In this document: in pieces, positions 1,658 through 6,686 of the stretch
Layout of the letters: each line of letters begins with the position of its first letter
Numbering within the stretch: position 1 is the stretch's first letter
DNA from: Candidatus Hermodarchaeota archaeon
GTDB lineage: Archaea > Asgardarchaeota > Heimdallarchaeia > Hodarchaeales > Hodarchaeaceae
NCBI GenBank assembly: GCA_048886185.1
Contig: JBHLKY010000030.1
Span: 1,836 to 33,835 of the forward strand
DNA length: 32,000 nucleotides
Reading direction: 5' to 3'
The notes under the pieces: model-generated
The model's database searches: none
Seen by the model: only the letters and a program-made list of their open reading frames with translations
Told to the model about the DNA's origin: nothing
Program-made: the position numbers and the translations under genes

Positions 1658-1816
1658 CTTTTTGAATTTAATGGCTTCATATTGCCTTTAATAAGGGGAA
1701 ATTATTTAATGTTCTTGAATTTATCCTAATCTTTCTAGATTAATCAATGAAATAGTATTTTCAATAATTATAAAATTGCGAATAAACAGCATTAATATCG
1801 ACATAAACAGCTATTC

Positions 1817-1829
1817 TTGAAATATAAAT
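1817..1829 (+). promoter_or_regulatory. Candidate archaeal BRE/TATA promoter of ABCE1
   Basis: TTGAAA-TATAAAT lies about 28 nt upstream of the GTG at 1857, which would fit a very short leader. Confidence 0.35.
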
Positions 1830-1856
1830 GTGAAGAATAATATTTAATCCAGTAGA

Positions 1857-3648
1857 GTGGTTTAACATAAGAATAATTAACCTTAATTTCGATAAATGCA
1901 AACCAGACCTCTGTGGGTACGCTTGTCTCAAATATTGTCCTTTAGTAATAAAGGGAGAAAAAAATGTCATTAAAATCCGAAAAAGCACTGGTAAACCTAT
2001 TATCAATAACAATAAATGCCTACTTGCTAAAAAGGGAACTTGTGGTATTTGTATCAATAAATGTTTTCCAAGAGCGATAAGTGTTGTCACTCTTCCCACT
2101 CCTGAAACTGCAGGCCACCAAGTCCATTGTTATGGCGAAAATGGGTTCCGATTTTATGGTGTGCCCCAAATTAGCCCTGGAAAGGTAATTGGTTTACTAG
2201 GTGTAAATGGTATTGGTAAATCGACACTTTTAGAAATCCTAGCGGGCAGAAAACTTCCAAATGGGGGTAATTTTCATAACCCAAAACAAGGATTTCAGGA
2301 CTTTTCATCTCAATTATCTGTTGCTAGTTTTCGACAATTCCTCACAGACCTTTCAACTGATAAATTATCAGTTGCATATAAACCTCAAGTCTTTTCGGAG
2401 CTCCTGACGATAACAAGTTCAGTTCAGGAAATTATTTCTAGCAGACAGCAAAAGGGCTTATTTTCTGAACAGGAAATCATTGATTTAATGGAACTAGAAT
2501 CGATTTTGGATCGAAATCCCTCTGAATTATCTGGGGGGGAATTACAAAGGTTAGCTATTGGTAGAGCGTTGTCACAAAATGTTGACATCTATTTAATCGA
2601 TGAACCCTGCACGTTTCTTGATTTTCGTCAGCGTATAAAAATGGGAACAATTTTTCAAAGGTTGGCTAAAGCTGGAAAAGTGATTTTTATCGCTGAACAC
2701 GATATTGCTATTCATGATTTTCAAAGTGACATAATCTATATTTTCTATGGTGAGCCACATAAATTTGGGGTCATTTCACGATTAGCTTACTCTGTTAAAA
2801 AAGGAATTAACAATTTTCTTCTCGGTAAATTGAAAGATGAAAACATCAGGATTCGCGGAAAAGAAATAATTTTCACTAGAGTGGTGAAAGAGCGACAGTG
2901 GGAAGGAATTCCTGGTATTGATTATCCTTCCTTTACGAAACAGTTAGGATCTTTTACTTTGAATGCAAATAAGGGAACCGTTCATTTTGGGGGAATACTT
3001 TGTGTTTTAGGCGAGAATGGATTAGGGAAAACGACTTTTGCTAGATATTTATATAAAACATTAAAAACAGCTACAATTTCATATAAACCTCAATTCTTAC
3101 ATAGAAGCTTTAAGGGGACTGTTCGTGAATTTCTAACTCGTTATTCGAACACTTATATAGATTCTAATGAGTTTAAACTTTACATTCTTAAGCCATTTTC
3201 AATTTCACACCTTTTAGAAAAACCAATAAGTGCTTTAAGTGGGGGGGAGTTACAGCGATGCTTTCTAGCAGGAAGTCTAGGGAAAAAAGCTGATTTATAT
3301 ATTATTGATGAAGGAAGTGCCTTTCTAGACGTTGAGGAGAGATTGAATGCAACACGGGTCATTCGTCACATAATATCGAAGAATAAAGCAGCCTGTATTG
3401 CAATCGAACATGATATACAGATCGCGGAAGCCTTAGCTGACACAATATTATTGTTTGAGGGGAATCCTGGATATCAAGGAAAAACAGTAGGCCCTTTCTC
3501 GAAGAGAGAAGGCATGAATCGTTTTTTAAAAAGAATTAACACAACTTTTAGGCGTGATCCAGAAACAGGCCGCGCGCGTCTAAATAAACCTGGAAGTCGG
3601 CTAGATCGGGAACAACGGGTAATTGGGGCCTATTATTATGACTTATAA
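1857..3648 (+). CDS. ABCE1: Ribosome recycling ATPase ABCE1/Rli with N-terminal 2x[4Fe-4S] domain. The true 5' end is upstream of the track's 2161 start; start is GTG 1857 via a +1 shift/indel, or ATA 1867
   Basis: The reading frame of 2161 stays open back to 1834 and encodes IRIINLNFDKCKPDLCGYACLKYCP...KCLLAKKGTCGICINKCFPRAI (RLI Fe-S domain). Two NBDs (GVNGIGKST, GENGLGKTT, LSGGELQR twice, DEP/DEG, EHD). Typical C-terminus TFRRDPETGRARLNKPGSRLDREQ...YYY. Confidence 0.93.
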
Positions 3649-3676: not shown

Positions 3677-4885
3677 CTAGCTAAAAGTAGGAAAGATCAA
3701 GCTAAAAATTTCAATAGGAACAGGTAAGCAAAGAATAGCTAGAGGGAGAGAAAATACAGCAATAATCTTACGACTCACTGTAACTGATGAAAGATCATCT
3801 AGTGGGCCTGCATGGCCTGTCCGTGAATACATGATGAGGATTAAAAGCGCAAATAACCAGAAACCTAAAATAACCATCAATGCTGCGCTCAGATACGTTA
3901 AAATCCTATGATTGTTTTCGGAGAACAGACTTCTGGCTATATGTCCGCCATCTAGCTGACCGACTGGGATTAAGTTTAATCCTGTTAGTAGCAATCCTAT
4001 ATATCCTGCGAAAGCTAATGGGTGTAAAAATATCTGGGTATCCGCTCCTTCATTCGGTTTTATTAAGAAAGCAAGAGCCTCAAAGAGGAGAATTCGGAAT
4101 CTAGTCTCACTAACCAATCTGAAATCTATAGGAATCAAAGGATTAAAAAGATTTTCCGGAATAGCTGAAGTGTTAACTTCGAACGAGATCATTAATCCTA
4201 TTATAGTGAAAAAAATAGAAGTAATAAATCCAAAGATTGGGCCAGCAAACCCGATATCAAATAAATCATTTCTAGATCGAATTGGTGTTTTTTGTGAGAT
4301 AAATGCGCCAAATGTGCCATAACCAAAAGGAAAGGGCAGAAAATAAGGCCAACTTGCTTTAATACCATGAATCTTTGAAGCAAACATGTGACCTAGTTCA
4401 TGAATACCAACAATCCCAATCAAGCCCACAGCGTATAGGAAGCTTGTTACAACTGGATTAAGATTAGATAGCGAGGGGCTGTCGATTTGACGTAAAACAT
4501 CCCAGCTCATGAATCCCACAAAAATTACAGAGAGAATAGTAAGACCAAAGAGAATAAGCGGAGTGGATAATTTCTGATCCGTTTCTTGCATTTTCTTACT
4601 CAGAGGAAAAATGTATAGCATTCCCCGCGATTCTTGAACTGGATGGGGACGAAGGAGGGGGACAAAACCGAGCTCCCTGAGTTGCTTGTTAACTATCTGC
4701 ATGTTTAATGTTAAATCACTTCGACGAAGGATCTCATAGGCAGGAATAACATCTACTTGTAAGCTTCTATTCGTATATCTATTAGTCTGGGGTATTGGTT
4801 TGTAAGAAACAGCGGTGACAGTAAAGTATCTATTGATGACCTCATCAATTTGAGAATAAGCCCAAAATCCAGTATTATTAAACAT
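3677..4885 (-). CDS. Site-2 protease (peptidase M50), intramembrane zinc metalloprotease
   Basis: HELGH zinc motif, GAFI, FDIGFAGP and NLIPVGQLDGGH motifs; multiple TM helices; soluble N-terminal extension. Confidence 0.93.
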   Translation of the reverse strand: MFNNTGFWAYSQIDEVINRYFTVTAVSYKPIPQTNRYTNRSLQVDVIPAYEILRRSDLTLNMQIVNKQLRELGFVPLLRPHPVQESRGMLYIFPLSKKMQETDQKLSTPLILFGLTILSVIFVGFMSWDVLRQIDSPSLSNLNPVVTSFLYAVGLIGIVGIHELGHMFASKIHGIKASWPYFLPFPFGYGTFGAFISQKTPIRSRNDLFDIGFAGPIFGFITSIFFTIIGLMISFEVNTSAIPENLFNPLIPIDFRLVSETRFRILLFEALAFLIKPNEGADTQIFLHPLAFAGYIGLLLTGLNLIPVGQLDGGHIARSLFSENNHRILTYLSAALMVILGFWLFALLILIMYSRTGHAGPLDDLSSVTVSRKIIAVFSLPLAILCLPVPIEIFSLIFPTFS

Positions 4886-5086
4886 AGAATATTCACTTAG
4901 CTCTTATCTATAAAAGTTTGATAAATCCTTTGATACGAACAAGCTTAAAACGATCTTTCACTTCAGTATCAAGATTTAATATCTTTTAGTTTAATTATTT
5001 GAATGAAGAAAACTTGCAATAATCCTATTAAATTGGAAATTAAAATTAAATAGTGAATATAGCCAATGATTGGTAGTTTAAAGTTA

Positions 5087-5638
5087 TTAAATGAAAATTC
5101 TAAAATCATGCCAAGAAAAATCGTTGGGAGCAATGATATCGAGCAACTTTGGCTCATTTTTAAGTTTTAACAGATTATTGACGCGTATTTCCCAAATCTT
5201 ATTTATTTTTTTAAGTTCAAGTGAACTTAAGGTGATTTCAGTTGGAATAAGTAGGAGTTTACCCACACAATTGAGAACCAGAATTAGCTCGTGATAATCA
5301 TTCCACCAAGGCAAACGGACATCAATCAGTAGTGCAATATACCTTACATTTGTTTGTTGAATTATAGGGTGAATAAGGTAAAATAGGATATTCAGTTTAT
5401 TTTTAAGTATTATAAATTCACAATAGTGTCCAAAACATGTAATACGTAATATTGGAATTTCTCGCCAGTGAATTAGACTTGGATTATCTGGGTGATGACA
5501 TAGAGAGGTGAGAAAGGTAATACCAATTCTCTTTATTCGACCCATCTCCAAAGTGGCTTCTATTCGTGCATCACGGTCAAATGAATAATGAAGGGATTCA
5601 TTTCTTTCAAAAATTTCGTGAATAAGTTTGCAGTTCAT
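5087..5638 (-). CDS. Hypothetical protein, 183 aa
   Basis: Long ORF with ATG and GAGGA SD-like motif, downstream of the GTPase operon. No motif recognised. Confidence 0.6.
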   Translation of the reverse strand: MNCKLIHEIFERNESLHYSFDRDARIEATLEMGRIKRIGITFLTSLCHHPDNPSLIHWREIPILRITCFGHYCEFIILKNKLNILFYLIHPIIQQTNVRYIALLIDVRLPWWNDYHELILVLNCVGKLLLIPTEITLSSLELKKINKIWEIRVNNLLKLKNEPKLLDIIAPNDFSWHDFRIFI

Positions 5639-5756
5639 TGTATCCTCTAAGATGATCTAATAGTTAGATTTTAAGAGGGTTTTAGATACAGTTTACCGCA
5701 ATTCTCATTTTCAAAGTTAGATGGGTAAAGAAAGCTCCTTTGATTTATCAAGCTTC

Positions 5757-6686
5757 TCAAGATTCTATCATGCTTTTCAACTGGGAACTAAAAGCAAGTA
5801 CCTTGTTGTATAAAGTAGGAATTTGCTCATTTTTCTCTTTAAGACGATCTTTTGGAAACCCAAAGAATAAAGCGAGGCCACCTTCAATGAATCTGATAAT
5901 AAAAACTTGACGATCAGATTCTAATAAAACTGATGTAGTGTTCTGATTTCTTTGATTTGATAGGCGTTGAAATACAGCATCAAAAAAGCTTTTCACCTCT
6001 AGGAGAGATATATGGTCAAATCGCGAAACATCTTGAACTTTTGTTAAGGGAGCACCTTCTTTTGTAAATATTTGAGCCATATCGGCTGCATTATGACGAA
6101 TGAACGTTTCTAATAGTGGTTTGAGAGTTTTTCGTGCACCACTGGCTTCTGCATAAACATCACCCATTGCCCTGAAAATTGAATCGGTAAAAACAGAGGT
6201 TGAATAGAATTTTATCTCTTGAGTAACACCAGAGGAAATATACTCTTTGATCGTAATTTTAACTTCGTCTCTGAGTCTTTTTGGTATTTGATCTGTTTTA
6301 TGTTGAAAAATGAAGACAGTCGCATCTGGACTAAATTGTTTTAATTTATTTAATGATAAATCCAAGTAATATTTAGCACGTGATATTTCATTTATTTTTA
6401 TTGAGTCAACAACGAATACTAAAGATTTGACCCCACTGAATATAAACTCTGATAACTCCCCTGTAAATCGATCCAGAAATGCTGTTTGGCCTCCTAGATC
6501 AAAAATGGTGAGTTCTGTTCCTGCAATGGTTTTTTGTTTCCGTTCATAATCAATAGTCGGGTTATACGATTCTCCTTTTTGGGGGATTTTTCCTTCAGTT
6601 ACTACTTTTATAATAGTAGATTTCCCAGACTCTGCTAGCCCTAGAATCAGAATTTTACTTGTTTTCTTTCGTGCAAGGTATGACAT
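5757..6686 (-). CDS. Rag/Gtr1-like small GTPase with C-terminal roadblock-like domain
   Basis: G1 GLAESGKST, G2 YNPTIDYE, G3 DLGGQ, G4 HKTD, G5 TSV. C-terminal alpha/beta domain (MAQIFTKEGAPL...SVLLESDRQVFIIRFI...LALFFG plus terminal helix). Confidence 0.88.
   Translation of the reverse strand: MSYLARKKTSKILILGLAESGKSTIIKVVTEGKIPQKGESYNPTIDYERKQKTIAGTELTIFDLGGQTAFLDRFTGELSEFIFSGVKSLVFVVDSIKINEISRAKYYLDLSLNKLKQFSPDATVFIFQHKTDQIPKRLRDEVKITIKEYISSGVTQEIKFYSTSVFTDSIFRAMGDVYAEASGARKTLKPLLETFIRHNAADMAQIFTKEGAPLTKVQDVSRFDHISLLEVKSFFDAVFQRLSNQRNQNTTSVLLESDRQVFIIRFIEGGLALFFGFPKDRLKEKNEQIPTLYNKVLAFSSQLKSMIES

Follow-up and report, generated by a model that had tools for sequence, protein, structure and literature searches.

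A Shine-Dalgarno-directed AUA codon as the probable start of a second ABCE1 gene in a Hodarchaeales archaeon

Results and Discussion

We analysed a window of 32,000 nucleotides from Candidatus Hermodarchaeota archaeon (assembly GCA_048886185.1, contig JBHLKY010000030.1, positions 1,836 to 33,835 of the forward strand), in which a gene for a paralogue of the ribosome-recycling ATPase ABCE1, also named RLI, has no in-frame ATG, GTG or TTG codon ahead of its first conserved domain. Comparison of this gene with its relatives and with the other gene starts of the source genome (G000, 4.8 Mb, about 35% GC) indicates that translation of the paralogue probably starts at AUA 1867 and is directed by a Shine-Dalgarno (SD) site. 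Additionally, about 30 genes of G000 appear, from their upstream regions, to start with ATT, ATC, ATA or CTG behind strong SD sites. The features on which the argument depends are listed below, with positions counted from the first letter of the window.

1867 to 3648, plus strand: proposed coding sequence of the ABCE1/RLI paralogue, 593 codons and a stop, with ATA read as Met to give MRIINLNFDKCKPDLC...
1867 to 1869, plus strand: ATA, proposed near-cognate start, codon 12 of the open frame; proposed from SD score and conservation
1855 to 1860, plus strand: GAGTGG, SD-like element, with GAG at -12 and GTG at -10 relative to ATA 1867
1857 to 1865, plus strand: out-of-frame GTG GTT TAA, read here as SD core and spacer and not as a short first open reading frame (ORF0) with a shift site
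1828 to 1833, plus strand: ATG TGA start-stop, regarded as incidental
1897 to 2064, plus strand: Fe-S cysteine motifs C-x4-C-x3-C-x3-CP and C-x7-C-x2-C-x3-C, seen in the translation
2161 to 2163, plus strand: GTG, first canonical in-frame start, rejected as the real start

A divergent second copy of ABCE1

By homology, the window gene is a second, divergent ABCE1/RLI paralogue. Its product scores 603.3 bits against the NCBIfam RLI equivalog NF009945, which has a cut-off of 469, and the alignment runs from residue 13 to residue 602 over model positions 3 to 589 of 592. Solved ABCE1 chains, such as PDB 3j15_B and 6tmf_d, are matched end to end (E = 5e-141). The alignments also bear on the position of the start: R13 corresponds to position 3 of NF009945, so that codon 12 fits the model start, and I12 aligns with residue 1-2 of the solved chains. 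The canonical ABCE1 of G000 is encoded on contig C3 at 4837-6669 (L031:538-2370), has an ATG start (MRIVVLDTDKCKPKKC) and shares 36% identity with the window gene. Each of the five families of the class that were searched (f1 to f5) yielded a match resembling the C3 gene, and the window gene used as a query retrieved a copy of its own type in families f1, f2 and f4 and none in f3 and f5.

The paralogue shares with canonical ABCE1, over the full length, the architecture of twin nucleotide-binding domains (NBDs) and the N-terminal Fe-S domain with two clusters. Pfam ABC_tran matches it in two stretches, and the NBD motifs comprise the Walker A sequences GVNGIGKST and GENGLGKTT, LSGGELQR twice, EHD twice and the Walker B sequences DIYLIDEP and DLYIIDEG, with the H-loop kept in both domains. 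It differs from the canonical protein in the C-x7-C spacing of the second Fe-S motif, where it has a five-residue insertion (LLAKK), and in the presence of DEG instead of DEP in the Walker B context of NBD2. The Pfam RLI and Fer4 models gave no match to its N-terminal domain at E <= 0.001. A literature search at the level of titles and abstracts returned nothing specific on ABCE1 paralogues in Asgard archaea.

The Fe-S domain precedes every canonical in-frame start

A preliminary description of the locus had pointed out that the ABCE1 frame is open from 1834 and has no ATG, GTG or TTG before 2161, and a scan of the reading frames in the window bore this out. The frame runs from 1834 to the stop codon at 3646-3648, and its first canonical in-frame start, GTG 2161, lies 109 codons in and 3' of all eight Fe-S cysteines (C22, C27, C31 and C35; C62, C70, C73 and C77, in the numbering of P0001). 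The scan also agreed with the description on two other points. GTG 1857 is out of the ABCE1 frame and reads GTG GTT TAA (VV*), while skipping T1863 gives M-V-N-I-R-I-I from this codon; and an ATG TGA pair is present upstream, yet it is not conserved, since its place is taken by ATG AAT TGA in some relatives, while others lack an ATG or have one in a different frame. The length of the startless stretch exceeds chance, as judged from its rarity in the genome: of the 3451 frames in G000 that span at least 150 codons from stop to stop, only 13 run for at least 100 codons before a canonical start occurs.

The startless layout is conserved among close relatives

The comparison of genomes establishes that the startless layout is old and conserved. 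It is common to the seven closest relatives (G003, G007, G008, G009, G010, G014 and G017; 81-84% identical), in which the ABCE1 frame reads GyA GAG TGG TTy ATT ATy CGA, and it occurs as well in three contigs from different JGI metagenomes. No in-frame ATG, GTG or TTG is shared among these seven relatives and three contigs. An upstream in-frame TTG, which is used by the ENA call P0003, is found in G014 only and was rejected as not shared. In G008 and G010 a stop codon stands immediately 5' of GTA GAG TGG, which confines the start to six codons.

A protein tree groups the eight startless genomes in a single clade, with G015 as its sister. G015 has GTGTGG, in which the in-frame GTG precedes the homologous GTG by two bases; in more distant members of the genus an in-frame GTG stands three codons ahead of the conserved I-R-I. 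This GTG is homologous throughout the DNA alignment, and the clade and its sister have one extra base between GTG and ATC-CGA. An ordinary in-frame start in relatives, which the preliminary description had named as an observation against its reading, is thus present in the more distant ones (GTG or ATG) and absent from the closest clade.

These data bear on the view that the Fe-S domain is not translated at all, either because translation starts at GTG 2161, because the gene is decaying, or because of a one-base assembly error. In its favour, GTG 2161 is the first canonical start and many public gene calls in the relatives are shortened to 541 amino acids. Within the clade, however, codons 12-109 show a pairwise ratio of nonsynonymous to synonymous differences (pN/pS) of 0.10 at a synonymous difference (pS) of about 0.6, and all eight cysteines are kept; the Fe-S domain is therefore translated and constrained. 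GTG 2161 was rejected as the start because the whole of this domain, which is under purifying selection, would be lost, and its SD score is low (-1.56, on the scale defined below). The extra base is present in eleven independent assemblies, namely the eight genomes and the three metagenome contigs, which refutes the suggestion that the T run contains a one-base error. Of all the explanations considered, an untranslated Fe-S domain is the one to which we give the least credence.

A ribosome-binding site positioned for ATA 1867

The Rfam archaeal model of the small-subunit rRNA found no 16S rRNA gene in G000, G007, G010 or G015, and for this reason the SD consensus was derived from gene starts. 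The 16S genes of these genomes may be unassembled or interrupted; two of the three relatives are single-contig assemblies. From 1469 well-defined gene starts of G000 we obtained the consensus GGAGGTGA, with T at -9, G at -8 and A at -7. Candidate starts were then scored with a position matrix built from 882 ATG genes, for which real starts have a median of 2.0 and a 90th percentile of 4.29.

ATA 1867 obtained a score of 4.75, above the 90th percentile of the ATG genes, and codon 12 of the seven relatives scored between 4.07 and 4.77. GTG 1857, taken as a start, scored -2.68, and its counterparts in the relatives about -2.5 to 1.0. The trinucleotide GTG itself peaks at -10 in G000, where it is found in 8.7% of the ATG genes versus a background of about 0.8%, and AGTG at -11 and GAG at -12 or -11 are likewise enriched. 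This enrichment means that the out-of-frame GTG can be understood as an ordinary SD core.

The pattern of conservation is consistent with this reading. AGAGTGG is invariant in the eight clade genomes despite the high synonymous divergence given above, and within the block conservation is lowest in the spacer of six bases that follows it (TTTAAC, TTCATT, TTTATT or AAGATT); 3' of the spacer, the ATH codon (ATA, ATC or ATT) and the coding region are conserved again. Codon 12 is ATA in G000 and ATC or ATT in all seven relatives and the three metagenome contigs, and it aligns with Met1 of the canonical ABCE1 of the genome. In L080, a 73%-identical relative from a JGI metagenome, codon 12 is a true ATG, in the context ATG CGG ATC TTG. 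An ATA start at 1867 had been one of several alternatives listed in the preliminary description, and it is the one favoured by SD score, by conservation and by homology to Met1 and to this ATG.

Several points weigh against a start at AUA 1867. The anti-SD sequence is inferred only from the regions upstream of genes, and GAGTGG is an imperfect match to GGAGGTGA. In E. coli, AUA, AUC, AUU and CUG initiate at 1-2% of the level of AUG (10.1101/063800), and reviews of archaeal translation give AUG, GUG and UUG as the only start codons (PMC7531240). In addition, every relative has ATH at codons 14 and 15, seven of the eight genomes have ATT at codon 11, and the public gene calls chose ATT 1876 in the window (P0002, MNLNFDK) and codon 11 in a relative (P0004, MIRIINL), so that the codon in use may be a neighbour of ATA 1867.

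The last of these points make initiation at another ATH of the cluster, that is at ATA 1873, at ATT 1876 or at the codon-11 ATT of the relatives, the main rival, although we consider it unlikely. ATA 1873 and ATT 1876 have SD scores of -1.61 and -2.88, and codon 11 scores between 0.7 and 3.0 and is AAC in G000. Moreover, a start at codon 14 or 15 would drop the conserved R-I, which belongs to the first beta-strand and aligns with the canonical M-R-I.

A model for the origin and use of the AUA start

Under initiation at AUA 1867, the ancestral start would have been the GTG three codons upstream. A gain of one base 3' of this GTG, in the ancestor of the clade and its sister, would have put it out of frame, and the former GTG region, as GAGTGG, would now serve as the ribosome-binding site, exactly 10 nucleotides before the Ile codon that matches the canonical Met1. 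The messenger would be leadered, and initiation would be of the ordinary SD-directed kind at a near-cognate codon, with the initiator tRNA reading AUA as Met to give a protein that begins MRIINLNFDKCKPDLC... We infer the choice of AUA 1867 over the neighbouring ATH codons, the reading as Met and the order of the mutations, as well as a low expression, which would follow from the use of AUA as a start.

Two conserved blocks lie upstream of the gene, the nearer of which is the following.

1792 to 1799, plus strand: TTAATATC, AT-rich block (AATATT in relatives), conserved in the clade, about 70 nucleotides upstream of the start

By inference from its composition and place, this block is a candidate TATA box, which would imply a leadered messenger. 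The other block, at 1694-1720 (GATTATTTAAAGTTGTTGAAT in relatives), is also conserved in the clade and lies between a divergently oriented minus-strand gene at 1121-1657 and the ABCE1 paralogue. It resembles a promoter with a B recognition element (BRE) and a TATA box, and it probably belongs to the minus-strand gene, whose start is about 50 nucleotides away.

Frameshifting and reinitiation explain the locus less well

The preliminary description had likened GTG-GTT-TAA-C to the programmed +1 frameshift site of prfB, the gene of release factor 2 (RF2), where the shift occurs at CUU-UGA-C. According to this proposal, translation starts at GTG 1857, reads GTT and skips a base at the slow TAA or its equivalent in the relatives. 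The GTG is indeed invariant in the eight genomes and the three contigs, it is homologous in the DNA alignment to the true GTG start of the more distant relatives, and in G000 a stop codon directly follows GTT. However, comparison of the 5' ends, which the description had put forward as a check for conserved NTT-TAA-C or ATA, showed that ATH at codon 12 is conserved and that NTT-TAA-C is not: GTT-TAA-C is private to G000, and the relatives have GTG GTT CAT TAT CCG, GTG GTT TAT TAT or GTG GAA GAT TAT. In these, 4 to 9 codons pass before the GTG frame reaches its stop. The genomes have neither a slippery codon nor an adjacent stop in common, and GTT is replaced by GAA G in G009. By the pairing rules, Val-tRNA on GUU should be unable to re-pair on UUU or UUC. 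The SD score of the GTG is poor, so that no properly initiated ORF0 is in evidence, and the occurrence of GTG at -10 is already accounted for as an SD core. Finally, a search of positions 1600-2100 for a known RNA element or stable structure found none (best Rfam E-value 0.71; fold z = -0.6).

The likeness to prfB is superficial: both sites have an NUU codon with a stop and a C after it, and both genes belong to the termination and recycling pathway. The window site differs in having no conserved in-frame stop, no re-pairing slippery codon and no initiated ORF0, and the shift would fall at codon 2. As far as the alignments go, none of the defining features of prfB is conserved in the relatives of the window gene. 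RF2-like autoregulatory frameshifting in this recycling factor does not hold, and we regard any programmed +1 shift here as very improbable.

Termination and reinitiation, in which GTG-GTT-TAA would be translated and ribosomes would restart at ATA so that the mini-ORF gates expression, appeared to us just as doubtful. In G000 the TAA at 1863-1865 ends one nucleotide before ATA 1867, and each clade member has an out-of-frame GTG mini-ORF, 2-9 codons long, that overlaps the start. In the relatives, however, the geometry is different, with the stop of the mini-ORF 5-20 nucleotides 3' of the ATH codon; the GTG has the same poor SD score, and AUA would still be needed as a start codon. A further idea, that the weak AUA start and the overlapping out-of-frame GUG mini-ORF, which is kept in the whole clade, together form a translational control device, has in our opinion a slim chance of being correct. 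If it were true, the device would couple the amount of a second recycling/initiation factor to the stringency of start-codon selection, as an archaeal analogue of the infC AUU, in a genus whose initiation machinery would tolerate AUH and CUG starts on about 1% of its genes, some of them probably essential.

Near-cognate starts elsewhere in the genome

Initiation at AUA 1867 would not stand alone in G000. To test for near-cognate starts we considered in-frame codons that lie 10 or more codons ahead of the first canonical start, recorded those with an SD score in the top decile, and used out-of-frame codons as controls. In-frame ATH codons had a top-decile SD in 27 of 817 cases versus 80 of 6641 for other codons (Fisher p = 2.6e-5), and the out-of-frame ATH controls in 13 of 800 and 4 of 545. 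For CTG the counts were 6 of 73 in frame, and 0 of 96 and 0 of 44 out of frame. A first form of the test, with the median SD score as threshold and with the codons beside canonical starts included, was uninformative, and only the stricter form discriminated. The enriched codons, ATH and CTG, are the four near-cognates with 1-2% of AUG activity in E. coli (10.1101/063800).

In seven other genes of G000 a Pfam domain begins upstream of the first canonical start, and an SD sequence is followed by ATT, ATC or ATA at the consensus spacing. These genes encode two alpha/beta hydrolases, a DNA methylase, a transglutaminase-like protein, an Arf-like GTPase, NurA and a CxxCxxCC protein, and the near-cognate-start examples are located as follows.

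C26:20798-21694, plus strand: L032
C7:154039-155190, plus strand: L033
C11:3519-4373, minus strand: L034
C4:29673-30725, minus strand: L035
C3:189882-191087, minus strand: L036
C20:75697-76455, minus strand: L037
C4:199901-200485, minus strand: L038, the CxxCxxCC-domain gene

The start of the Arf-like GTPase is found behind GGAG(G) in its orthologues as ATT, ATA or ATC in eight genomes, as TTG in one and as ATG in four, and two genomes have stop codons directly 5' of the ATT or ATC. The orthologues of the DNA methylase have an ATC or ATT start in six genomes. In L038, an in-frame GTG GTA GTA TAA stands directly 5' of ATA AAA AAG, and its GTG is part of an AGGTGGT ribosome-binding site; this case indicates that look-alikes made of GTG plus a stop arise from the SD consensus.

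A further frame, L039 (C5:154595-156799, plus strand), consists of 734 codons, is helicase-like (ResIII, Helicase_C) and has 158 codons before its first canonical start. Just upstream, an ATG behind AAGGA lies in another frame (ATG GCT ATA ACC ... TAG). L039 could represent a frameshift, real or artefactual, or a near-cognate start at the ATT of codon 56, which scores 5.29.

We also considered changes in the initiation machinery of G000. An unusual initiator tRNA was discarded, as aragorn identified one CAU tRNA with initiator features (A1:U72 and three G:C pairs) and a normal anticodon; the program's detection of tRNAs in this assembly is incomplete, with 32 genes, many of which have introns, and in addition three doubtful tRNA-Pyl(cta) calls. 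Loss of aIF1 was discarded as well, given that aIF1 (SUI1) is present.

Comparison with known near-cognate starts

Near-cognate AUU starts are classical in infC and pcnB of E. coli (10.1101/063800). The window gene would resemble these two in being a translation-related gene with an Ile-type near-cognate codon behind a ribosome-binding site, decoded, as we propose, by the initiator tRNA. It differs from them in that the host is an archaeon with initiation of the aIF1/aIF2 type and that the codon is AUA, with AUC or AUU in the relatives. Autoregulation through a fidelity factor is characteristic of infC, and for the window gene it would be speculative. A further difference is that the codon class is used in G000 by a sizeable set of unrelated genes, as described above, so that it need not be gene-specific.

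Among archaea, ribosome profiling of Haloferax observed near-cognate sites, which were set aside (PMC7261190). A rare ATT start, with a ribosome-binding site in a suitable place, was inferred for atubA, a tubulin gene of Asgard archaea (Kariarchaeaceae; PMC13394414). That gene belongs to the same archaeal class as the window gene, the Heimdallarchaeia, but it is a single gene and its start was inferred from a structure model, whereas the present case draws on conservation in eight species, on the ATG of a relative and on a genome-wide statistic.

Consequences for annotation and for initiation in Asgard archaea

The public annotations of this gene family already contain ATT starts: the public protein of the window gene begins MNLNFDK, with ATT 1876 read as Met, and an NCBI protein of a relative begins MIRIINL. 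Many JGI and Logan calls for the relatives have 541 amino acids and an internal Met start (MAKKGTCG...), and thereby lack all of the first Fe-S cluster and some of the second. The proteins of relatives with shortened calls are given here.

Shortened-call proteins of relatives: P0006-P0008, P0010, P0012, P0014, P0016, P0018, P0026 and P0030

The versions of 541 and 495 amino acids produced by standard gene callers are truncation artefacts of the restriction to ATG, GTG and TTG. The start proposed here would fix the N-terminus of the paralogue and keeps the Fe-S domain complete. Near-cognate starts affect gene calling in Asgard archaea, and correct N-termini of eukaryotic signature proteins matter for work on their structure and function.

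A genus of Hodarchaeales, among the archaea closest to eukaryotes, appears to use AUA, AUC, AUU and CUG starts regularly behind strong ribosome-binding sites. The genes with these starts are natural substrates for studies of start-codon stringency in the aIF1/aIF2 system.

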